Part shown: positions 7,792 to 20,258 of the stretch, in pieces
Layout: every line of letters begins with the position of its first letter
Numbering within the stretch: position 1 is the first letter of the stretch
Source of the DNA: Candidatus Saccharimonadota bacterium
GTDB taxonomy: Bacteria > Patescibacteriota > Saccharimonadia > CAILAD01 > BJGX01
NCBI GenBank assembly: GCA_009691435.1
Contig: SICO01000001.1
Location: forward strand, 1-39,915
Reading direction: 5' to 3'
DNA length: 39,915 nt
Notes under the pieces: model-generated
Seen by the model: only the letters and a program-made list of their open reading frames with translations
The model's database searches: none
What the model was told of the DNA's origin: nothing
Program-made: the position numbers and the translations under genes

Positions 7792-7800
7792 TGTTATAAT
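7792..7800 (+). promoter_or_regulatory. Extended -10 element TGtTATAAT, 8 nt upstream of the lepB ATG
   Basis: Read directly. There is no clear -35 and no SD before ATG 7809. Confidence 0.35.
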
Positions 7801-7808
7801 TAACTATA

Positions 7809-8615
7809 ATGGACAACAAAGAAGAAACAGCTGATGTTCACGCTAAACTAGACGATTCAGAACTACTACAGCCAGGCACCGATATTAAGCCAGGAGCCTA
7901 CCCTAATCCCAGCGAGACCGAAGGCAGTCCTAAGCTAGGTACAGGCAATATTGAGGCCGACATTAAAGACTTTAATAATTTTGTAACCCTCCAAGATGAG
8001 TCTGTAGTTGAAGAAAAGCCACAACACAGTCTGCTACATATTATTTGGGAAATTGTAAAGACCCTAATCATTGCTGCCATTGTTGTAATATTTATCAATA
8101 CTTTTGTATTTCAAGCCTACTACGTAGACGGAGGCAGTATGAACCCAGATTTTATTAATGGAGACTACCTGCTAGTTGATAAAATAAAAACCTCACTTAA
8201 AAATATTAGTGGGTTTTTTGGCAATAAGAGTGGCCTAAAAATTAACCGTGGCGATATCCTAGTGTTCAGGCCTCCGGGTAATCCAGAAATCTTTTATATT
8301 AAGAGAGTCATCGGCCTCCCTGGTGAGAGAATAACCTTGAAAGATGGTGTCTTTACGATCTATAACCAAGAGCACCCCAAGGGGCTAGTATTAAAGGAGG
8401 CTTATGTTGACCCGCACTATAAGGCCGAGGGAGAAGTTGATGAGGTTATTGAAGCTAATAATGTCTTTGTAGTTGGGGATAACCGCTCGGCTGGCGGCAG
8501 TTATGATTCTAGAAGCTGGGGGCAACTGCCTCAAGCCAATATCATTGGCAACGCCTTCTTTAGGGTTATGCCACTAAATGATGCCGGTTTTATTAAGCAG
8601 CCCAGCTACAATTAA
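7809..8615 (+). CDS. lepB: Signal peptidase I
   Basis: A TM anchor is followed by GGSMNPDF (Ser nucleophile box), KRVIGLPGE (Lys box) and GDNRSAGGSYDSRSWG. Confidence 0.9.
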   Translation: MDNKEETADVHAKLDDSELLQPGTDIKPGAYPNPSETEGSPKLGTGNIEADIKDFNNFVTLQDESVVEEKPQHSLLHIIWEIVKTLIIAAIVVIFINTFVFQAYYVDGGSMNPDFINGDYLLVDKIKTSLKNISGFFGNKSGLKINRGDILVFRPPGNPEIFYIKRVIGLPGERITLKDGVFTIYNQEHPKGLVLKEAYVDPHYKAEGEVDEVIEANNVFVVGDNRSAGGSYDSRSWGQLPQANIIGNAFFRVMPLNDAGFIKQPSYN

Positions 8616-9518: not shown

Positions 9519-10285
9519 ATTGCTAACCTCTTTTCTACTTCTCGGGCTAATTTCTTGTAAGCCTGCGCTCCTTTAGAAAACCTATCATACTCAAAGATTG
9601 GTTTGCCGTGGCTTGGAGCTTCAGCTAATCGTATATTGCGCGGTATAATAGTGTCAAATATTTTAGCTGGAAAATGTTTTTTGAGCTCCACTAGCACCTG
9701 CTCGCCAAGAGTTGTCCTGCGATTATGCATAGTTACAACGAGACCTAATAGTTCTAGGGTTTGATTCAAGCTAACCCTAACGCGCTTAATTGTTTCTAAT
9801 AATTCCGAAAGCCCCTCTAGGGCATAGTACTCACTCTGGACTGGAATTAAAATAGATTTACTAGCTACAAAGGCGTTGATTGTTAAAAGCCCAAGTGATG
9901 GCGGGCAATCTATGATAATTACTTCATACTCTAACTGTGCCAGAGAGTTTTTAAGAATTTTTTCTCTACCCTGGGTGGCAGAGATCTCAACTTCTGCAGC
10001 TGCTAGTTCTGGCTTAGATGGCAAGATATCCAAATTATCTACCTTGGTTTTTACAATCACATCCAGAGCTGAGGTCTTATCAACCATCACATTATAAATA
10101 CTCAATTTAAGTTTATGCTTATCAAGAGCTAGGCCGCTCGTAGAGTTGCCTTGGGGGTCCAAATCAACCAAAAGTACCTTATGCCCAAATTTTGCCAAAT
10201 AAGCAGCAAGGCTGATAGCTGTAGTGGTTTTTCCGACGCCGCCTTTTTGATTAGCAACTGACATAATTTTGCTGACATCTGACAT
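9515..10285 (-). CDS. parA: Chromosome partitioning ATPase ParA/Soj
   Basis: Deviant Walker A, NQKGGVGKTTT. Confidence 0.9.
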   Translation of the reverse strand: MSDVSKIMSVANQKGGVGKTTTAISLAAYLAKFGHKVLLVDLDPQGNSTSGLALDKHKLKLSIYNVMVDKTSALDVIVKTKVDNLDILPSKPELAAAEVEISATQGREKILKNSLAQLEYEVIIIDCPPSLGLLTINAFVASKSILIPVQSEYYALEGLSELLETIKRVRVSLNQTLELLGLVVTMHNRRTTLGEQVLVELKKHFPAKIFDTIIPRNIRLAEAPSHGKPIFEYDRFSKGAQAYKKLAREVEKRLAI

Positions 10286-10325
10286 ATTAACTAATTATAG
10301 CAAGCTTTCATGATTTAATAGAGGG

Positions 10326-10355
10326 TTTACAGGGTAGATACTTTCGTGCTATAAT
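10326..10355 (+). promoter_or_regulatory. Putative promoter TTTACA-18-(TGc)TATAAT for rplU
   Basis: Hexamers were read directly. The extended -10 TG is present, and a leader of roughly 35-40 nt carries a purine-rich AAAGGGAAA segment. Confidence 0.45.
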
Positions 10356-10397
10356 TTTTAATCGTCTAAAAACCAACCAAAGAAAGGGAAACTAGCA

Positions 10398-10709
10398 GTG
10401 ATAGCGGTAATAGAATCAGGTTCAAAGCAATATATGGTAGAAAAAGGTCATCAAATCAAGACCGAATTATTACATTCCGATCAAGAGGAAGTTGAATTTA
10501 GACCTCTAATTATTATCGATGGGGATAATATTCAAATTGGTAAACCAAAGCTTGAGGGAGCTACGGTAAAAGCCAAAATTATATCAGCAGATATCAAAGC
10601 CGATAAAGTTAAGATCCTAAAATATAAAGCAAAGAAGCGCCAGAAAACACTAACTGGCCACAGACAGCGCCACACGATACTAGAAATCACGGCCATAAAA
10701 ACAAAATAG
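10398..10709 (+). CDS. rplU: 50S ribosomal protein L21
   Basis: Begins (GTG)IAVIESGSKQYMVEKG, with TGHRQRHT near the C-terminus. Confidence 0.9.
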   Translation: MIAVIESGSKQYMVEKGHQIKTELLHSDQEEVEFRPLIIIDGDNIQIGKPKLEGATVKAKIISADIKADKVKILKYKAKKRQKTLTGHRQRHTILEITAIKTK

Positions 10710-10722
10710 TAAATTAATTTTT

Positions 10723-10768
10723 AAACACCTTTGAGAGTTTTTTAATCAAAATAAAAAGGTGTTTTTTT
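10723..10768. terminator. Hairpin terminator between convergent rplU and the lipase-like gene
   Basis: AAACACCTTT and AAAGGTGTTT form a 10-bp stem around a 22-nt loop. A T-run follows on the plus strand and an A-rich tract precedes it. Confidence 0.55.
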
Positions 10769-12191
10769 ATTTACAATTATTACTAACTGGCTTCGATGAC
10801 AAGATATTTTGCATCCAACTTATAGTGTCCTTAAAGCTAGCGTTCATTACCTGATAATGATCTACTCTGCCAGACTGGTTGTAGCCTTGAATGGCGTATG
10901 GGCTTGTATCGTACTTTTTAAAAGTTACCGCGTTGCCACTGGCACACATCCTTTCTAGGCCGTGCTGGCTCTGCGAAAGCAATATAACATCATCATGGAT
11001 ACCATGGTTAATAAGTTTCGGCCTGTCGGTTTTTTTACTTCCAACAATATTCTTTACCAAATCTGCAGAGAGCCCAGCGTAGGCAGCATCAGCCGCAATA
11101 TTTAAATTTTTGGCTACCCTGATAAATTCAGGAGTATAAACTTGATTTGATCGATTATCTCCTATGTTATTGGGCCAAGTTTTATTAAACATATCTAGGC
11201 AGATAGCCTGCGAACCTGTCTGGTAGGTTTTAGCCCATTTGGGCAGCAGAATCTTATCTACAGGATAGGTGGCCTTATACCAATCGCCATAACTAGTTAG
11301 AATTAAAGGACCAAACCAGTTAATATTAGCTCCGTTAGTGGCATCATCTAGCGTCTCCTCGACGCTAGTAACTGGCCCAAACCCGATTGCTGCTTTTAGG
11401 TTGATTTCAGGAGCATAGTCATCTTTAATTTGATCGGCCCAATATGCCCCGTGCCCGCCCTCGGAATACCCAGCGCTAAAAACTTTTGTATCATCAATTT
11501 GGTCTTTAGAGAGAGCAAGATTTTTAAGCGAACGGATACTGTCCAAAACTGCCTTGCCAGCTAGTTCCCCCACCATATAATGATGAAGTCTAGTGGCGTC
11601 GCGCATACCCTCGTAATCAATAGCTACCACGACGTAGCCTTGACTGGCATATGCCATCAGCAAGCTATCATAATTACCCCAATCGTTTTTTGCAGGGTCC
11701 TCAAGCGAAGCACTACAGCTATCGCCAACTCCGGTAGTACCTGGCGCGAACGCTAACACTGGTTTTTTATTAGCGCCTGCAGGGACATAAACCCTGGCAT
11801 AAATTGGCACATTATCACTTTGGCCATCTGAACTGTTAAAGACAAATGTCTGCTTAGTAACTTCGGTAGTAATAGGGCTATCAAAGTGCTTATTAGTTTG
11901 AACCACTAAGCGTTGCACGGCATCTGCAGAGAATACCCCGACAGGTTCTTCGCTAATTATTTTACCGGTTTTAATGACACGGTTGACGTGCTCTTTAATG
12001 CTCACAACGTTAGGAACCTGCTTAGGCTTTGATCTAGGTAAAACATAGTAAAAATACCCAGCCAACAATGCAACAAAAATAAGCTCAACAATTAGGATTA
12101 CCCATAAGGCACGCGCTACCAGTCTTCGGTTCTTCTCTAGTCTTGAAATTGGTTTGCGGGTTTTTCTCATGCAACTATCCAAATCTACCAA
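10767..12191 (-). CDS. Membrane-anchored extracytoplasmic alpha/beta hydrolase, secretory-lipase-like (LIP family-like)
   Basis: N-terminal TM segment. Nucleophile elbow GYSEGGHG, with candidate Asp (HGIHDDVIL) and His (RVDHYQ). Confidence 0.6.
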   Translation of the reverse strand: MVDLDSCMRKTRKPISRLEKNRRLVARALWVILIVELIFVALLAGYFYYVLPRSKPKQVPNVVSIKEHVNRVIKTGKIISEEPVGVFSADAVQRLVVQTNKHFDSPITTEVTKQTFVFNSSDGQSDNVPIYARVYVPAGANKKPVLAFAPGTTGVGDSCSASLEDPAKNDWGNYDSLLMAYASQGYVVVAIDYEGMRDATRLHHYMVGELAGKAVLDSIRSLKNLALSKDQIDDTKVFSAGYSEGGHGAYWADQIKDDYAPEINLKAAIGFGPVTSVEETLDDATNGANINWFGPLILTSYGDWYKATYPVDKILLPKWAKTYQTGSQAICLDMFNKTWPNNIGDNRSNQVYTPEFIRVAKNLNIAADAAYAGLSADLVKNIVGSKKTDRPKLINHGIHDDVILLSQSQHGLERMCASGNAVTFKKYDTSPYAIQGYNQSGRVDHYQVMNASFKDTISWMQNILSSKPVSNNCK

Positions 12192-12202
12192 TCGGCATTA
12201 AC

Positions 12203-13123
12203 TTAAGCGCTCTCTAGATACCTCTCTACCTCAAGTGCAGCCCTACATCCATCGCCTGCTGCTGTAACCGCCTGGCGATAAAGTGGGTCAGCAACATCAC
12301 CTGCCGCAAAAACTCCATCAATAGCAGTTTTAACATTATCCTGAACTACTAAGTACCCAGTTTTATCCATCTCTAGGGACCCCTTAAATAAACCAGTAGC
12401 CGGGGTGTGCCCAACTGCTACAAAGAACCCCTGGCAGGCTACTTTTTGAGTTTTACCGGTTTTAATATTTTTGAGCTTCACGCCCTCAACTTTATCTTTT
12501 CCTAAAACCTCTAGAATTTCCGAGTCCCATATCACTTCAATCTTATTATTCTTGAGTACTCTTTCTTGCATTATCTTGCTAGCCCTAAATTTATCTCGGC
12601 GGTGAATGAGCGTAACTTTACTAGCTAATTTGGCCAGCGTTAGTGACTCTTCCATGGCACTATCACCGCCGCCAACCACCACTACCTCTTGATCCTTGAA
12701 AAAGAATCCATCACAGGTGGCACAGGATGATACGCCTTGCCCCATTAATTTTTGTTCACTATCTAACCCTAACCAATTGGCGCTAGCGCCAGTAGCTATA
12801 ATGATAGTTTTGGTCAAATACTCCTGTTTGCCAATTAGTAACTTCTTGGGCTGACCACCTAGTTCTACTTTGGTCGCAAATTCTTGGATAATTTCTACCC
12901 CAAACCTTTTAGCCTGGGCTTTCATCTCATCCATTAGCTGGGGGCCCAGTATACCATCTTTAAACCCTGGAAAATTTTCAACATCACTGGTTAGTAACAA
13001 TTGCCCGCCAGGAGTAGTTCCGACTACCATTAGTACTTTAATGTTCGCTCTGGCAGCATAAATAGCTGCCGTGTAGCCAGCTGGGCCAGCCCCAATAATT
13101 ATTAAGTCGTATGTTTGCATCAA
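12203..13123 (-). CDS. trxB: Thioredoxin-disulfide reductase
   Basis: FAD motif IIGAGPAG, redox CATCDG, NADPH motif VVGGGDSAMEE. Confidence 0.9.
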   Translation of the reverse strand: MMQTYDLIIIGAGPAGYTAAIYAARANIKVLMVVGTTPGGQLLLTSDVENFPGFKDGILGPQLMDEMKAQAKRFGVEIIQEFATKVELGGQPKKLLIGKQEYLTKTIIIATGASANWLGLDSEQKLMGQGVSSCATCDGFFFKDQEVVVVGGGDSAMEESLTLAKLASKVTLIHRRDKFRASKIMQERVLKNNKIEVIWDSEILEVLGKDKVEGVKLKNIKTGKTQKVACQGFFVAVGHTPATGLFKGSLEMDKTGYLVVQDNVKTAIDGVFAAGDVADPLYRQAVTAAGDGCRAALEVERYLESA

Positions 13124-13127
13124 TTAA

Positions 13128-14354
13128 TTATAACAGATTAAATAAGTCTATTGTTTGTGTCGCTAGTAATGTCATGCTAAATAACAACCCTAAGATTGGC
13201 ACTACTAGTGGTACGCTAAAAATTGGACGTTGCAGCCGGCGGTGTTTTATCTTCCAATATATTAAAGATAAGTTAACTATCGCAAAAACAATTAAAATTA
13301 AATAGCTAGTAGTAGCTGCCAGAGCCGTAAGATTAAAAAATATTGCTAATAGCGAGGAGGCTATGACCATTACTATAATAGCTAGCGAAGGAGTTTGGCG
13401 ACGTTCGTGGACAATAGCTAAGCGTTTGTGTATCCAGCCAACTTCGGCCATGCCATATAGTAATCTCGAGCCACTAATTAGGTGAGCTAGCACCCCTCCG
13501 GCCGTGGCGGTTAAGGCGATTATAGTAATAATCCATGCCGGAGAATTAGTAATTTTATTAAAAACTAAACTAAGTGGTGCCGTAGATGCCTGCAGCTGTT
13601 CGGTGGGGATAGTGTTAGTAGCGACAATTGCTATTAATATATACAAAACCGTTGCAATCGTCATGGCTGAGACTATAGCCATTGGCATTGTAAAGCGAGG
13701 GTTTTTTGTTTCCTCCGATAAATGGACCATATCCTCAATACCAATATAGGCATAAAAAGCTAGGAATGCTCCGGAGAGTAGTCCAGTCATACCAACGGCC
13801 CGGATATCTATCATCGCGCTGGGGTTAGCAAATGCTACGCCCAAAGTCTCCTTGCCAAACCAAATGATGGCTATCAAGCCAGCAATTTCTATTAATGTAT
13901 GTACGGCCGCAAATACTAGAGATTCTTTCACCCCCCATGAGGCAATGAAACCAAGAACTAGTATTATTAATGTTGAGCCAATAGGCATTATTATCCCCGT
14001 TGAACTAAAAGCATAACCACCAAAGGCTCTGGCTAAGGTGGCGGCCGATACTATGGTAGCAACCATCATTAATAACCCAACTGCCATTGAGACTGACTTT
14101 CTTTTAAAGGCCCGATGCACATAAGCAGATACTCCCTCGCTATAAGGGTGGAGGCTAGATAATTCAGCGAAAGAGAGGGCGCTAAATGAAGCTATCAACA
14201 TAGATAGTAAAAAAGCCAAGGGGGTAGCCATGCCAGCCTCACCTGCTACCTTGCCAATCAGGGCGTATATCCCGGCACCGACAATATTGCCTAGGCCATA
14301 AATGGTTACTAAAAATATACCGAGTGTACGCCTGAGCTTGTGCCGGCGAGCCAT
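13128..14354 (-). CDS. APC-superfamily amino acid permease (about 12 TM)
   Basis: The hydrophobic pattern and N-terminal region (GLGNIVGAGIYALIG) are typical of amino acid/polyamine permeases. It starts 3 nt after the heliorhodopsin stop. Confidence 0.8.
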   Translation of the reverse strand: MARRHKLRRTLGIFLVTIYGLGNIVGAGIYALIGKVAGEAGMATPLAFLLSMLIASFSALSFAELSSLHPYSEGVSAYVHRAFKRKSVSMAVGLLMMVATIVSAATLARAFGGYAFSSTGIIMPIGSTLIILVLGFIASWGVKESLVFAAVHTLIEIAGLIAIIWFGKETLGVAFANPSAMIDIRAVGMTGLLSGAFLAFYAYIGIEDMVHLSEETKNPRFTMPMAIVSAMTIATVLYILIAIVATNTIPTEQLQASTAPLSLVFNKITNSPAWIITIIALTATAGGVLAHLISGSRLLYGMAEVGWIHKRLAIVHERRQTPSLAIIVMVIASSLLAIFFNLTALAATTSYLILIVFAIVNLSLIYWKIKHRRLQRPIFSVPLVVPILGLLFSMTLLATQTIDLFNLL

Positions 14355-14357
14355 TTT

Positions 14358-15149
14358 TTAAGGCCTAAGAGTCCCGGCGAAGACCTGCCACGCCAAGGCT
14401 GTCTTGGCTACCAGACTCAGAATAATATAGACTCGCTCGCCGTAGAGATAGTTTTTCCAGGGTCCCCACTTTTTGTACTGCAAGAACATATTGATAGCAA
14501 AACAATTGAAGAATAAAAAGATGGTAACAAATATCCAATAAACGAAGGCTGGTATTTTGGCGCTAGAGGTTGAGCTAGAGGCGCTGGCCCAAAAATAAAT
14601 TGCGATGCATATCCAGGGCACGATACCTGCGATGCAACCCACGATGTAACTAATCCATTTTGTTTTTTCGGTAGTTTGATTATGGATTTCCATTATTAGG
14701 CCACAGAGGTTCATGACCATTACGAGTGCGAATAAACAAATTAGGCTGACCAGGTCGTAAATACCCGTCAGTAATGCAATCGCTACAATCATGATGCTAG
14801 CCGAAAAGCTGTATTCTATCCAGCGAGCTCGGTTCATACCAAGCTTGAGGTCTTTTTTGTAGCGGTGGAAGTAGATAGTAGAAATTATCAGGTGAGCCAA
14901 CATACAAATTACCAAGAACGCCAGAATCGGCCAAACCAAGGGGAGCTGGTAGATAGACTTGGTGGCGGAGTCGAGGCTTTCGGTGCTAGTGTTAAATGTC
15001 AGGTAGCTGACATTAATCGGAAACTTAACCTTGGCGTTGGCAATCATAAACATCACCGCCACTTGAATTGCAAAGAACACGAACATAAATATATTAAATT
15101 TTCGTAAGCCTTCGACTGTTATTTTTTTCTTGGCCACTTGACTTCTCAC
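14358..15149 (-). CDS. Heliorhodopsin (7-TM retinal protein). The true start may be the second GTG at 15137.
   Basis: Family-wide similarity to heliorhodopsin 48C12 as I recall it: RWIEYSFSASIMIV, GCIAGIVPWI, PAFVY, LFFNCFA, and GERVYIILSLVAKTALAWQVFAGTL carrying the Schiff-base Lys. Confidence 0.9.
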   Translation of the reverse strand: MRSQVAKKKITVEGLRKFNIFMFVFFAIQVAVMFMIANAKVKFPINVSYLTFNTSTESLDSATKSIYQLPLVWPILAFLVICMLAHLIISTIYFHRYKKDLKLGMNRARWIEYSFSASIMIVAIALLTGIYDLVSLICLFALVMVMNLCGLIMEIHNQTTEKTKWISYIVGCIAGIVPWICIAIYFWASASSSTSSAKIPAFVYWIFVTIFLFFNCFAINMFLQYKKWGPWKNYLYGERVYIILSLVAKTALAWQVFAGTLRP

Positions 15150-15190
15150 CCTTCTGTAAAATTAATTAATTCTTAAAGCTTATGCTTATA

Positions 15191-15219
15191 ATTATAAATT
15201 AAAAATTAGGCCGAAGCAA
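15191..15219 (-). promoter_or_regulatory. Putative promoter TTGCTT-17-TATAAT (minus strand) directly upstream of the heliorhodopsin gene
   Basis: Hexamers were read on the reverse complement. The -35 overlaps the 3' end of the upstream ORF. Confidence 0.45.
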
Positions 15220-15688
15220 TTTTGATGTAGTTTATGTTGTCGCAAATATAGTAGGCCAGTATTTTAAAGCTATTAAGCTTGGGAAGCTTAAATTTTTTAG
15301 CAATTGCTACAAGGTCCTCAAAGCTCGTGCCGCTGGTGTCTACTAGCGTAAAAACTAGTACGGTCGGCACGCTATAGTGCCTAAGGTGCGTAAAGAGTTT
15401 GTTCGCAAAAAATATTTCGATTTGATTTAAGCGTTCGTCGTGAGGCAAGTTGGCAGGCAAAGATAGCCGGCACAGCTGGGGGTTATAAACACACTGCACC
15501 GAGGCTTGGTCGTCTGAGATTATAACGCTGTCAAAACCCAACAACTCTCCGCCCTTAGCGTAGATCATATCTGGGTTCTCGGCATACGACTGAAAAACCC
15601 AGCCATGATACTCTGGGCATACTTGCAGAAACTTCTCAATGAGCTCCCTCTCGCGATGTTTTTTTATTTTGTCATATGGTAAATTCAT
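15206..15688 (-). CDS. Hypothetical cytoplasmic protein (160 aa), no recognised family
   Basis: Intact ORF with no signal peptide or TM segment, lying 16 nt downstream of the nuclease gene. Confidence 0.5.
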   Translation of the reverse strand: MNLPYDKIKKHRERELIEKFLQVCPEYHGWVFQSYAENPDMIYAKGGELLGFDSVIISDDQASVQCVYNPQLCRLSLPANLPHDERLNQIEIFFANKLFTHLRHYSVPTVLVFTLVDTSGTSFEDLVAIAKKFKLPKLNSFKILAYYICDNINYIKIASA

Positions 15689-15704
15689 AATTTATACATT
15701 CTAA

Positions 15705-16235
15705 TTACTTTGTAGTCCCAGAGCAAGTTTTTGGTGACCATAAACCTACTTCGCCCTCCCGAGCTCTGAGCTCTGCTTGCTTAAAATCATTTTGATATTT
15801 ATAAGCTTGGGATCGATAGGTATATTCATGAGCATATCCCTCCTCAATAAGCGATAGATTAATAAGCTTGCCCTGCTCCCAAACATAGGCGAGCAAACGA
15901 TTATATTTATCACGCTCACCAACTACTGGATCAAACTCAAGGCTAATCCTTTTGCCGGTTAGGAGCTCTTTGGTTTTTTGTGAAGCCTCCTTGCCAAAAC
16001 ACTGCACGGGCTTGCGAGGATCAATAGTTTCGGGGGTATCAATGCCAATAAAACGAACCTTCTCAAGTTTACCGTAGCGAAATATCTGGAGTGTGTCTCC
16101 GTCGTCAACTTTCTTGACCTCATAGACTTCTTGGCCTGGGGCTTCAGAAGCACTAGTATCCGGCTTGTTCATACCCACGGCTAAACCTGCCAAAAGAAGT
16201 AATACCCCGACATATAGTATTTTTTTAGTTCGCAT
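15705..16235 (-). CDS. Secreted or membrane-anchored thermonuclease (staphylococcal nuclease, SNase family)
   Basis: An N-terminal hydrophobic segment is followed by VDDGDTLQI...VRFIGIDTPET and a later YA...EA...ARE..GLW SNase signature. Confidence 0.85.
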   Translation of the reverse strand: MRTKKILYVGVLLLLAGLAVGMNKPDTSASEAPGQEVYEVKKVDDGDTLQIFRYGKLEKVRFIGIDTPETIDPRKPVQCFGKEASQKTKELLTGKRISLEFDPVVGERDKYNRLLAYVWEQGKLINLSLIEEGYAHEYTYRSQAYKYQNDFKQAELRAREGEVGLWSPKTCSGTTK

Positions 16236-17362
16236 TATACTAGCTCCGAGTCCCTGAGCTCACGACCTCGTCTTCTAAAATAAACACTCTCCACTAAGCC
16301 GACAGCAAATAAACTCACCATTAAGCTGGTTCCACCGGCTGATATGAATGGTAGTGGTATGCCTGTAACCGGCATAATGCCGAGATTCATTCCGATATTG
16401 ACAAAAACATGCACCACAAACATTGTGGCGATGCCAATACAAAGTAAGCTACCAAAGCGGTCGCTGCTGAAGGTGGCATCGACTATCGTTCGCGCTATTA
16501 CTGCCACGAACAGCAGTATGCAAACCAGAGCACCCAAAAAGCCGAGTTTTTCTGCTAGTACCGCAAACACAAAGTCGGTGTGTGAACTTGGCAAAAAATT
16601 GCCTTGGCTCTGGCTACCCGATCCCAGGCCTTGTCCGTATAGACCACCCGAGCCGACTGCTATGATTGCCTGATTGACATTATAGCCAGCCCCGCTAGGG
16701 TCCGTACTCGGCTGTAGAAATGTATTAATACGCTCTTTCTGGTAGCTCTGAAGCGTTGGGTATAGAATCGGCATCATGACTAACAATAAAAGTAGCAGGC
16801 CAAGAATATATTTCTTTTTAACTTTTGTGGATAGTGTCATAGCCAACCAAATAAACCCTAGGGCAATAGCGGTACCTAAGTCTGGCTGGGCCAGAACTAA
16901 GAAGATTACAGGTAGTGTATAGACTAATGATTTTACTAAAAATCTTAATTGATCAGTGAAATCAAAGTTTTGAGAATAAAACTTGGCAAGCACTATTATC
17001 AGGATGAGCTTAGCAAGCTCCGATGGCTGGAATTGAAATGGGCCAAGTGCTATCCAGCGTGTCGCCCCCAATCTTGTTGCGCCAAACAGTTCAACAGCCA
17101 GGAGTGTAGCTATCATAAAAAAGTATAAAACACCGCTATAGTTCCTTAATACCCTATAGTCATTCCTGGCGGCGAGGACAAGTAGTAAAAAGCCAATTAA
17201 GGCATAGACAATTTGCCTGGTGCTATCTAGTTGGTTGGAAACCTGCTTGGCCTTAATACCTAGCGAGTACAGTACTATTAAGCCTAACACTACGAGCAGA
17301 GTGGAAGCGGCCAATAATAGATTATCAAAATTACCAATCTGCCAAACTGATTTAGGCTTCAT
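16235..17362 (-). CDS. SEDS-family peptidoglycan polymerase (FtsW/RodA/SpoVE)
   Basis: About 10 TM segments, with PSELAKL and the loop GLGSGSQSQGNFLPSSHTDFVFA. Confidence 0.85.
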   Translation of the reverse strand: MKPKSVWQIGNFDNLLLAASTLLVVLGLIVLYSLGIKAKQVSNQLDSTRQIVYALIGFLLLVLAARNDYRVLRNYSGVLYFFMIATLLAVELFGATRLGATRWIALGPFQFQPSELAKLILIIVLAKFYSQNFDFTDQLRFLVKSLVYTLPVIFLVLAQPDLGTAIALGFIWLAMTLSTKVKKKYILGLLLLLLVMMPILYPTLQSYQKERINTFLQPSTDPSGAGYNVNQAIIAVGSGGLYGQGLGSGSQSQGNFLPSSHTDFVFAVLAEKLGFLGALVCILLFVAVIARTIVDATFSSDRFGSLLCIGIATMFVVHVFVNIGMNLGIMPVTGIPLPFISAGGTSLMVSLFAVGLVESVYFRRRGRELRDSELV

Positions 17363-20258
17363 GCTTTTCTAGCTCAATTATCAATTCATCGCCGTCCATA
17401 GCTAGTGTTTTTTTGAACTGATAAGACTTAGACTCTAGCGCGTACTCCTTAGCCAATGTTTCGTGAGATATTAATTCCTGATATTCCTCGAGAGCCAGCT
17501 TGAGGATACTAGATTTTGTAATAATGGCCAGCTTAATGCGGTTCTGAATTGCCAGGCCAGCTTCTTTACGGCAGGATTGAATATTGCGGATGATATCCCT
17601 TGCAAGGCCTTCGTTTCTAAGCGTTGGAGAGATATTAGTATCTAGCTGGACCTCCACTAGATCGCTCTTTTTATATTGTACTTCCTTAACATTGAGCTCA
17701 TCGGCAATAATTGCCGAGAGCTCTTTGGTAATTTTTTTAGGTCCAAAGAGTACAACACTCTGCAACGGCTGGCGAACTTTAATTTTATGCTCTGAGCGTT
17801 TAGCAAGGCCATCGTTAACATAACGGCGCACAGCATCCATATCCACTAAAATATCCTCATCATGCTGGTGAGCATTGGGCCAGTCACTCAAATGCACCGA
17901 CTGTGGAGCCCCTAGAATATCTGCTGTTAGGTGGCGATATAGCCAGTCACTCATAAACGGGGCCCACGGGGCGAGCAATTGGCAAATAGTTATCAGCGAC
18001 CAGTGTAGTGTCTGGTACGCTTGCGATTTATCTAAATCGTCCTCTGACTTCCAGAACCTTCTACGGCTCCGTCGAACATACCAATTGGATAAATCATCAA
18101 CCAATCTATAAACGGGCCAACATGCTTTGGCTAATTCAAAATTATCAGCGGCAGCAGTAACCTCTTTAATGGTGCTGGATACTCTTGCCACTAGCCAGAT
18201 ATCAAGAGGGTTCTCTAAGCCTGTTGGCATATCCAAACTCTCTGGCTCCCAGCTGTCAATCTCACTATATAAACTCATAAAAGAAGCGCTATTATAAAGT
18301 GTCATAAATAAATTCCGATTAATATCACTAAGGCTAGCGCGGTCAAAGCGCATATTATCGGCCGAGAGGGCTGGCGCGCTAGATAGCAGGTAGTACCTTA
18401 AGCTATCCGCTCCTTCAAGGTCAAAGACATCTTGAAGTGGCGGATAATTTTTAAGCCTCTTGGATAGTTTTTGTCCATCGGCGGCGGTAATCATTCCGTT
18501 GACCAAAACATTTCGATAAGCAGGCTTACCTAGTACGATCGTTGAGATAACATGTAAAACATAAAACCATAGTCTCGTCTGGTCAAGCCCCTCGCCAATG
18601 AAATCTGCTGGCAAACTATTTCTAAATTTATCAGTGTTTTCAAAAGGGTAGTGTTGCTGGGCTATTGGCATCGAGCCAGAGTCAAACCAGCAATCCAGAA
18701 CCTCCTCAACGCGCTTGTATACTTTTTTGTCTTTTTGTATCGTAACATTATCTATCAAAGGACGGTGCAAATCAGATAAATCAGTATCTGGGCCGGCTAG
18801 CTTTTGAAGCTCTTCAATGCTTTCTACGACTATTATGTCGCTCTCGTCTTTACTGTTAACCCAAATTGGCATCGGTGCACCCCAGTAGCGATTCCGCGAT
18901 ACCGCCCAGTCCCTAGCACCCTCCAGCCATTTGCCAAAACTGCCAGCCTTGATATTAGAGGGAGTCCAATTAATCTCTTGAGCTGCTGCTAGTAACTCTT
19001 TTTTAATTGTAGAGACAGCGATAAACCATGTATCAATAGCATAATAAAGCAGTGGGGTATCGCAACGGTAACAATAAGGATAGGTATGCGCAAATGTTTC
19101 TGCCGAATAGATTTTACCCTGTTTCGTTAGCTCCTCTATAATTATTTTATCAGCTGATTTGAAAAACTTACCCTCTAGGGCTTCTAGCCCCATATTTTGC
19201 TTAACTTTGCCTGACAAATCAATAGTATTAATGATAGGGATACCCTTCTCCTGGCCTAGGGCGAGATCGTCCTCACCAAAAGCTGGGGCTACATGTAAGA
19301 TCCCAGTTCCATCATCAACGCTCACAAAATCCGCAGCCCATATTTTGTAAAGATTCTGATGCTTTGCCGTACCCTTAATATCAAATAATGGCTGGTAGCT
19401 CTTGCCGACTAAGTCACTAGCTGCGATAGTCTTCAAGACCTCATAGCTATCGCTCTTAATGCTCTCCAGGCGCTTTTCGGCAATTATCAACTGCTCGCTT
19501 GTTTCGTCCTGATAATGAACATTAATAAGCAGATATTTAGCATTGGGCTCAATTGCCAGGGCACAATTACCCGGTAGGCTCCATGGCGTTGTAGTCCACG
19601 CCAATAAGCTTGCCTGCTCGCCTTGTAGCTTGAACTTTACAATCACGCTAGGGTCCGAGACGTTATCTTTATAGCCCTCATTAACCTCAAAATTACTAAG
19701 TGGTGTAGCACAGCGCGGGCAATAAGGCATGCACTTAAAGCCCTTATAAATTAAGCCTTTTTTATAAATCTGCGCAAATGTCCACCATTCCGACTCAATA
19801 TATTGATTATCGATAGTAGCATAGGCATTTTCTTTATCCGTCCAGCGACCAATTCTATCAAAGTAACTTTCCCAGTCGCTCTTATATTTAAAAACAGAGT
19901 CCCGGCAGGCATTATTGAATTTCTCTAGTCCCAACTCCATAATTTGCTGTTTGCCAACAACATTAAACTGTTTTTCTATTTCAAATTCTACTGGTAAGCC
20001 ATGGCAATCCCAGCCGTTTCTACGCTCCACGTACCTTCCCTTCATGGTTTGGAATCGCCCGATTGAATCCTTAATGCTAGTCACTAGGCTGTGCCCGAAG
20101 TGAGGAAGACCATTTGCAAATGGTGGGCCATCGTAAAAACTAAATGGTTTACCATCCTTAGTTTTCTGTAATGAGGCTGCGAAAGTGCCCTCATCCTGCC
20201 AGGCCTTGAGCATTGCTTCTTCGACTACTTTCGGTTTGTACTGAGGTAATTTTTTCAT
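17352..20258 (-). CDS. ileS: Isoleucyl-tRNA synthetase (type-2 / eukaryote-like form)
   Basis: HIGH region PPFANGLPHFGH, KMSKS variant KLSKRLKN, and GKWLEGARDWAVSRNRYWGAPMPIW. Confidence 0.95.
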   Translation of the reverse strand: MKKLPQYKPKVVEEAMLKAWQDEGTFAASLQKTKDGKPFSFYDGPPFANGLPHFGHSLVTSIKDSIGRFQTMKGRYVERRNGWDCHGLPVEFEIEKQFNVVGKQQIMELGLEKFNNACRDSVFKYKSDWESYFDRIGRWTDKENAYATIDNQYIESEWWTFAQIYKKGLIYKGFKCMPYCPRCATPLSNFEVNEGYKDNVSDPSVIVKFKLQGEQASLLAWTTTPWSLPGNCALAIEPNAKYLLINVHYQDETSEQLIIAEKRLESIKSDSYEVLKTIAASDLVGKSYQPLFDIKGTAKHQNLYKIWAADFVSVDDGTGILHVAPAFGEDDLALGQEKGIPIINTIDLSGKVKQNMGLEALEGKFFKSADKIIIEELTKQGKIYSAETFAHTYPYCYRCDTPLLYYAIDTWFIAVSTIKKELLAAAQEINWTPSNIKAGSFGKWLEGARDWAVSRNRYWGAPMPIWVNSKDESDIIVVESIEELQKLAGPDTDLSDLHRPLIDNVTIQKDKKVYKRVEEVLDCWFDSGSMPIAQQHYPFENTDKFRNSLPADFIGEGLDQTRLWFYVLHVISTIVLGKPAYRNVLVNGMITAADGQKLSKRLKNYPPLQDVFDLEGADSLRYYLLSSAPALSADNMRFDRASLSDINRNLFMTLYNSASFMSLYSEIDSWEPESLDMPTGLENPLDIWLVARVSSTIKEVTAAADNFELAKACWPVYRLVDDLSNWYVRRSRRRFWKSEDDLDKSQAYQTLHWSLITICQLLAPWAPFMSDWLYRHLTADILGAPQSVHLSDWPNAHQHDEDILVDMDAVRRYVNDGLAKRSEHKIKVRQPLQSVVLFGPKKITKELSAIIADELNVKEVQYKKSDLVEVQLDTNISPTLRNEGLARDIIRNIQSCRKEAGLAIQNRIKLAIITKSSILKLALEEYQELISHETLAKEYALESKSYQFKKTLAMDGDELIIELEKHEA

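Follow-up and report, generated by a model that had tools for sequence, protein, structure and literature searches.

Comparative analysis of a heliorhodopsin gene and its downstream neighbours in Saccharibacteria suggests two nested transcription units on a conserved gene backbone

The function of heliorhodopsins (HeRs) is largely open, and progress has come from testing the operon neighbours of HeR genes as candidate partners. Experiments have demonstrated that HeRs regulate an operon neighbour in the cases of glutamine synthetase (PMC9529153) and photolyase (PMC9769723), and a model that links HeRs with redox processes has been applied to bacteria of the candidate phyla radiation (CPR), in which SLVAK is the commonest HeR motif, and among which the HeRs of Saccharimonadia have already been catalogued (PMC9166423). 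Here we analyse a HeR gene in a 39.9-kb stretch of a Candidatus Saccharimonadota genome (contig SICO01000001.1; the whole stretch is referred to below as the window), where it is followed by genes for a permease of the APC superfamily, a thioredoxin-disulfide reductase (TrxB) and a LIP-family alpha/beta hydrolase. Neither APC permeases nor TrxB belong to the ten recurrent groups of HeR neighbours described in PMC11109279, and full-text literature searches returned no paper that links HeR to an APC permease or to TrxB as an adjacent gene or partner. An earlier note on this DNA had read the four genes as one candidate operon and had put forward a HeR-permease or HeR-TrxB functional unit as a hypothesis that it believed to be untested; an APC-permease partner is indeed unreported in the literature searched, but HeR-partner operons and a link between HeR and redox processes have both been published.

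In order to place the locus in an evolutionary context, we mapped the window proteins onto 69 related loci, namely 24 from genomes, 39 from metagenomes and six found via homologues of the protein encoded directly upstream of HeR; four further loci found via permease homologues brought the total to 73 (labelled L001 etc.). The HeR clade is defined here by HeR identity of at least 67%. The closest relatives of the window are freshwater Saccharibacteria metagenome-assembled genomes (MAGs) designated "Patescibacteria group bacterium UBA4664", which belong to the streamlined CPR genomes of ~1 Mb (PMC9166423), and L006 represents a same-species relative (93-100% identity); a lookup of the exact sequence of the window HeR gave no hit. 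The interpretation that we prefer, with a probability of roughly 0.6, is that four functionally unrelated genes are packed on the conserved backbone of a streamlined chromosome, where they would be expressed from two nested transcription units and not from a dedicated operon. The locus is a lineage-restricted, facultative case of a HeR gene with a probably co-transcribed neighbour.

As the earlier note had stated, the four genes follow one another on the minus strand, all in the same direction. The HeR gene (14358..15137, minus strand; 259 aa from GTG 15137, with the longest open reading frame starting at 15149) yields a full-length profile match above the curated cut-off, both in Pfam (PF18761, E=1.4e-91, 306.6 bits vs 26.7) and for the HeR equivalog of NCBIfam (NF038020, 319.9 bits vs 100), and its product retains the Schiff-base lysine in the SxxxK motif of transmembrane helix 7 (TM7) and the glutamate of TM3. 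The permease (13128..14354, minus strand; 408 aa) matches AA_permease_2 (PF13520, E=2.8e-39) and PF00324 with 135.7 and 113.2 bits, i.e. above the gathering score, while all of its 22 NCBIfam matches remain far under the cut-offs (the best is TIGR00909, 209 vs 557 bits), so that it is assigned to no substrate-specific equivalog; some of its homologues carry the JGI label "APA family basic amino acid/polyamine antiporter". TrxB (12203..13120, minus strand; 305 aa from ATG 13120, a longer reading frame starting from TTG 13123) is a low-molecular-weight thioredoxin reductase by its equivalog score (TIGR01292, 409 bits vs a cut-off of 343), its CxxC centre and its FAD and NADPH motifs, with CATC, GAGPAG, GGGDSA and HRRDKFRA all readable in the translation. 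The hydrolase (10767..12170, minus strand; 467 aa from ATG 12170, the longest reading frame starting at 12191) scores 76 bits against the LIP profile PF03583 (cut-off 23) and contains the nucleophile elbow GYSEG, with a hydrophobic helix at the N-terminus as its predicted membrane anchor; its profile score makes it a member of the secretory lipase family, with lipase activity as a prediction.

Analysis of the related loci reveals that the gene following HeR varies within the HeR clade. It is a permease on the same strand in the window, L006, L002, L031, L033 and L067, a convergent RecD/Pif1-like helicase in L001, L003-5, L032, L015 and L046, a convergent RND exporter in L009, L010, L025-30, L037, L041, L042 and L070, trxB itself in L007 and L034, an MFS transporter on either strand in L008, L012, L014, L035, L038, L039, L045, L047 and L048, and small unknown proteins in L013, L016 and L044. 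All four genes are found in this arrangement in no locus other than the window and L006; elsewhere LIP is absent (L033), a GNAT gene is inserted (L009 and L010) or the permease is lacking (other loci). What is conserved is the order ileS-rodA-SNase-hyp160-[variable slot]-trxB-LIP-rplU-parAB, where hyp160 denotes the gene directly upstream of HeR: most members of the clade have trxB at a distance of 0-7 kb downstream from HeR, but the segment trxB-LIP-rplU-parA-parB is maintained as backbone synteny just as well as the proximity of HeR to trxB, and in L012/L014/L048 trxB is found on the opposite strand, 5 kb away. None of the permease, trxB and LIP genes occurs within 8-10 kb of HeRs of less than 62% identity, and permease homologues of up to 57% identity in other Saccharibacteria are adjacent neither to HeR nor to TrxB. 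Thus the comparison of neighbourhoods that the earlier note had proposed as a check reveals no adjacency of HeR to a partner beyond synteny by descent. Nor does any histidine kinase or response regulator adjoin HeR in the loci compared.

The junction between HeR and the permease deserves separate consideration. The 3-nt gap reported in the earlier note (AAA between the HeR stop codon TAA and the ATG of the permease) is correct, and we recognised no promoter of its own before the permease wherever it abuts HeR, which together make a bicistronic HeR-permease transcript plausible in this strain. By comparison, in the loci with a convergent RND gene between HeR and the permease, the latter has its own TAAAAT box 7 nt before the ATG. 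Junctions of similar tightness (2-14 nt) are present in at least three other lineages, represented by L002/L031, L033 and L067. Moreover, in sister strains that lack the permease we found a decaying remnant of its codons 1-25 directly past the HeR stop, between HeR and the convergent helicase (L001 10790-10890, L003/L004 10793-10890, L005 4175-4320, L032 8796-8890). In L032 the remnant can still be read as MARRHKLKRTLGLFLVTIYGLG, whereas a stop codon interrupts it in L001 and it is badly degraded in L003-5. These remnants, which on their sequence record one or several deletions, indicate that the tight junction was ancestral in the close clade and that the permease was deleted later. HeR itself is intact and 99.2-99.6% identical between a strain with the permease (L031) and strains without it (L003, L032), and the existence of near-identical HeRs with and without the permease argues against an obligate partnership. 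The permease is thus dispensable, and HeR would function independently of it.

The HeR gene most probably has its own transcription start. The element described in the earlier note (15191..15219, minus strand) comprises a -35 box TTGCTT located within the last codons of the upstream gene, a 17-nt spacer and a -10 box TATAAT, and its position and sequence stand, but "near-consensus" overstates it, as the -35 box agrees with TTGACA at 3/6 positions only. For this reason it was not listed by a consensus promoter scan of the window, which overall found 13 sites against 13.4 expected. A TTGC[A/T/C]T-17(18)-TATAAT element is, however, conserved in position and spacing before HeR in ~25 related loci, including those with a different upstream gene, and since the spacer between the boxes has diverged, this conservation indicates that HeR carries a dedicated promoter, predicted across the clade. 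Translation is more likely to begin at GTG 15137 (MAKKKIT, as in all relatives) than at GTG 15149, and GAAGGGTGAG precedes the former as its ribosome-binding site.

Just downstream of the HeR -10 box we found a HeR-specific conserved 9-mer, AAGCATAAG (15179..15187, minus strand), which is unique in the window and in the related loci follows the -10 box by 1-10 nt. There are 34 exact matches to it in 730 kb of related loci against ~8 expected, and 22 of the 34 are located on the sense strand 10-73 nt upstream of HeR. From its placement, the box may mark the region where transcription starts, or else serve a regulator as operator. It was observed upstream of HeR in L001-L006, L009-L012, L014, L016, L031, L032, L036, L038-L040, L042, L043, L047 and L048. 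Copies in reverse orientation precede some distant HeRs (L018, L051, L007/L034); several of them are better read as an extended -10 of the form TGCTAAAAT, and we did not count them as support. We also rejected the copies of AAGCATAAG at the 5' end of the permease in L028-30 and L033 as a shared cis element: they overlap conserved K-H-K codons and are therefore attributable to chance (~1 in 8 per lineage), and the window permease has no AAGCATAAG at its 5' end. A one-mismatch variant (AAACATAAG; GCAAACATAAGA) lies ~23 nt upstream of the permease -10 box in the RND-permease intergenic regions of RND-containing loci (L009 13434-13507, L010, L025, L028, L037, L042), which may reflect shared regulation with HeR or chance.

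A second start is indicated in front of trxB. The extended -10 element TGTTATAAT (13127..13135, minus strand) overlaps the permease stop codon and ends 6 nt before the trxB ATG, and TGnTATAAT is found 6-9 nt before this ATG in ~12 lineages, in which the preceding gene may be the permease, a helicase in divergent orientation or HeR. On this comparative evidence, trxB would start from its own conserved promoter independently of the gene upstream. A short distance from promoter to start codon is the geometry of leaderless transcripts, and it is from this geometry that we infer the leaderless mode. TGnTATAAT occurs at seven sites in the window against 3.1 expected, and at parA (10294-10302, minus strand) and at the gene at 7809 (7792-7800, plus strand) the box is placed in the same way, 8 nt before the start codons, which suggests that many genes of this genome are transcribed without a leader. 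The geometry of the promoter, together with the N-termini of relatives (MKKYD...), also favours ATG 13120 as the trxB start, so that the gap to the permease amounts to 7 nt, the 4 nt of the earlier note being valid only for TTG 13123. Likewise, the 11-nt gap between trxB and the hydrolase holds from TTG 12191, but in relatives the hydrolase begins with M-x-K-x-RKPI, corresponding to ATG 12170, and the gap is then 32 nt.

No convincing terminator was found within the stretch from HeR to the hydrolase. The hairpin at the junction where the hydrolase gene and rplU converge (10723..10764), which the earlier note had taken for the next terminator, is real: it has a 10-bp stem (-12.8 kcal/mol, z = -2.1) and a T-run that is clean on the plus strand, i.e. 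on the rplU side. Six relatives possess a hairpin with an A-run, stem and T-run at the same junction, from which the structure in the window is probably a bidirectional terminator. An Rfam scan of positions 10000-17500 (E up to 1) returned no RNA family, and hence no known riboswitch or leader.

The compactness of the gene arrangement, from which the earlier note had deduced co-transcription and probable translational coupling, turned out to say nothing about function, because such packing is the norm in this genome. Among the ~27 pairs of same-strand neighbours in the window, 17 overlap or are separated by 16 nt or less, including pairs of clearly unrelated genes such as ileS/rodA/SNase, and HeR itself lies within a 20-kb run of ~24 co-directional genes. 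This calls for caution in streamlined CPR genomes in general, where gaps of 3-10 nt and long co-directional runs are the default and spacing alone does not indicate functional coupling.

Combining these data, we propose the following scheme. One unit would start at the HeR promoter with its AAGCATAAG box, comprise a leader with a ribosome-binding site and run through HeR into the permease, so that both genes are most likely co-transcribed in this strain, with their translation possibly coupled. The other would start at the extended -10 box TGTTATAAT and yield a leaderless trxB(-LIP) mRNA from position 13120. Read-through from the former into the latter is likely, because no terminator precedes the hairpin at 10723-10764, where both units would end. 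On the evolutionary scale, the HeR-permease junction would be ancestral in the clade and would have been broken repeatedly by deletion or by the insertion of convergent genes. Of the co-transcription proposed earlier, the HeR promoter and a plausible HeR-permease bicistron thus remain, but not a conserved four-gene unit, since trxB has a promoter of its own. The earlier note had itself listed separate transcripts with internal promoters among the findings that would refute its reading, and the conserved extended -10 before trxB is such a promoter. The sequences directly show the identity of the genes, the conservation of the motifs, the variation in synteny and the remnants of the permease, whereas the transcription units and the functional independence of the genes are our interpretation.

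Several points weigh against this interpretation. The promoters and transcription units are deduced from motif conservation alone; HeR regulation of a neighbouring ABC transporter has been shown experimentally (PMC11109279), and a link of HeR with redox processes and oxidative stress has been proposed, with thioredoxin enrichment near HeRs as part of the argument (PMC8612252). The tight HeR-permease junction (2-14 nt, with no promoter) is kept in four or more lineages whose HeRs range from 76 to 95% identity, and its persistence could reflect selection for co-expression; besides, the loss of the permease testifies to its dispensability, not to the absence of an interaction in strains where both proteins are present. 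Finally, HeR often has a transporter gene next to it, of the APC, RND or MFS type and in mixed orientations (RND or MFS in L008, L009, L010, L012, L014, L025-L030, L035, L038, L039, L045, L047, L048 and L070, among others), which could be due to chance or to a weak general association of HeRs with transporters. One alternative is a functional pair: once activated by light, HeR would bind the permease translated along with it in the membrane and thereby modulate the transport of amino acids or polyamines, in the manner of the OcHeR-OmrDE system. Such a pair is compatible with the permease ATG only 3 nt past the HeR stop and no visible promoter between them, with the same junction in L006, L002/L031, L033 and L067 and the remnants that attest to the ancestral state, with the recurrence of transporters beside HeR in the clade, and with the precedents of HeRs that regulate operon neighbours, a transporter among them (PMC11109279, PMC9529153). 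Nevertheless, the permease has been deleted in several sister strains with HeR unchanged, a large subclade has a convergent RND gene between HeR and a permease that there possesses its own TAAAAT promoter, permease homologues of up to 57% identity occur without HeR and HeRs below 62% identity without the permease, and APC permeases are outside the ten recurrent groups of HeR neighbours (PMC11109279). We therefore regard a functional pair as unlikely, even though a bicistron is plausible and a facultative coupling possible. A stronger version, somewhat less likely again, is that the ancestral HeR-permease bicistron encodes a light-modulated secondary transporter, with HeR bound to the APC permease translated together with it and nutrient uptake adjusted to daylight. 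If this were true, partner regulation by HeR would no longer be confined to ABC exporters but include APC carriers, here in an episymbiont obliged to import amino acids, and the AAGCATAAG box specific to HeR promoters would point to a regulator dedicated to the HeR-permease unit.

The same data bear on the proposals that include trxB. In a light/oxidative-stress unit of HeR and TrxB, light perceived by HeR would raise the capacity of the thioredoxin system by co-transcription or by direct interaction; this would agree with the location of trxB no more than 7 kb downstream of HeR across most of the clade, and directly beside it in L007/L034, with the lack of a terminator between the two genes in the window, and with the published enrichment of redox proteins, thioredoxin among them, near HeRs and the proposed oxidative-stress role (PMC8612252, PMC9166423). 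However, trxB has its conserved leaderless-type promoter everywhere, its position is set by the trxB-LIP-rplU-parAB backbone, which is equally conserved and has no plausible link to HeR, it is on the opposite strand and 5 kb away in L012/L014/L048, and it is absent near more distant HeRs. TrxB is, moreover, a housekeeping enzyme. With backbone synteny sufficient to explain the proximity, a HeR-TrxB unit is not supported, and we consider it improbable. Least credible is one dedicated operon of four genes, in which the secreted hydrolase would free a substrate, the permease import it, TrxB support the process and HeR gate it by light. It accounts for the common strand, the gaps of 3-32 nt, the one promoter upstream and the one terminator downstream in the window strain and L006, but it is already largely refuted by the comparative data: the arrangement is restricted to these two loci, with L033 lacking LIP, GNAT inserted in L009/L010 and other loci devoid of the permease, trxB has an internal promoter, and packing of this kind is the genome norm. 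Two nested transcription units on a conserved backbone thus remain the interpretation that we favour.

Turning to the HeR protein, the counterion Glu108 (RWIEYS, TM3) and the Schiff-base Lys245 (SLVAK, TM7) are invariant in the 41 sequences of the clade, and the protein is, as predicted from its sequence, an intact retinal-binding photoreceptor. The closest solved structure is that of TaHeR from a Thermoplasmatales archaeon (PDB 6is6; E=2e-76 over the full length), which has the counterion Glu and the Schiff-base Lys in common with the window HeR, but whose TM1 His (VIHLIQ) aligns with a Phe at about residue 22 (VFFAIQ). This His is absent also from relatives of at least 67% identity and kept in the more distant CPR HeRs of L017, L021 and L022. 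The divergence of the HeR gene is discordant with that of its surroundings: between the window and L006 HeR shows 89% nucleotide identity while the hyp160 and permease flanks show 96%, and between the window and other species (L001 and L002 among those compared) HeR shows 85-89% and the flanks 62-76%. Such a pattern would be expected if HeR had undergone recombination or allele exchange, or if it were under unusually strong constraint. Some genomes of the clade, L008 (2332-3096) and L038/L039 (1985-2743), have an additional HeR paralogue, which is divergent (42-44% identity) and lies 5-7 kb upstream of the main HeR.

The most constant neighbour of HeR, present upstream of it in most loci of the clade, is outside the proposed operon. 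This gene, hyp160 (15206..15688, minus strand), encodes an orphan protein of 160 aa with no match in Pfam or NCBIfam and just 17 clusters among 1.8 billion representatives. Its AlphaFold2 model is confident (pLDDT 86) but has no significant match among PDB folds, the only similarity being a faint one to PD-(D/E)xK nucleases (E >=0.05). We considered hyp160 as an obligate partner of HeR and rejected it, because one homologue (52% identical) shares the rodA-SNase context but has no HeR beside it. Upstream of HeR, a sister subclade has genes for isopentenyl-diphosphate isomerase (NF002995, 208 bits) and for a conserved protein of 166 aa without known family (L012 6989-8850, L013 8912-10780, L014 8919-10783, L040, L047), and in L016 (3193-4495) the gene for the 166-aa protein comes after HeR. 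An isoprenoid gene beside HeR is worthy of note because Saccharibacteria have been reported to lack retinal synthesis (PMC9296517).

The clade offers a natural experiment, in that some strains have an APC permease next to HeR and others, with an almost identical HeR, do not, so that they are matched for the study of a facultative partnership. In addition, the conserved box of the HeR promoter and the predicted leaderless promoter of trxB are small but usable additions to the annotation of transcription signals in CPR bacteria.

Among the described systems, the nearest to the window is OcHeR-OmrDE, in which a HeR gene is likewise followed by a transporter gene in one predicted transcription unit (Cho et al. 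2024, PMC11109279). Binding of HeR to the transporter and its modulation by light were shown there, and the same mechanism is what has been proposed for the window; yet the partner of OcHeR is an ABC multidrug exporter, whereas the neighbour in the window is a secondary permease of the APC superfamily whose adjacency is facultative in the clade. The pairs AbHeR-glutamine synthetase and TfHeR-photolyase (PMC9529153, PMC9769723) follow the same logic, the partner being inferred from adjacency in one operon, but they involve soluble enzymes with demonstrated binding and light-dependent activation, and in the window trxB has a promoter of its own. Finally, the window resembles the situation modelled by Bulzu et al. 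2021 (PMC8612252) and Chiriac et al. 2022 (PMC9166423) in that a HeR of a monoderm or CPR bacterium lies near a redox gene, here trxB, and the related MAGs (with names of the RH, TH, MiE and Baikal types) resemble those of the latter study. Those papers describe a statistical enrichment of two-component and redox domains, while in the window the proximity of HeR and trxB is explained by backbone synteny.

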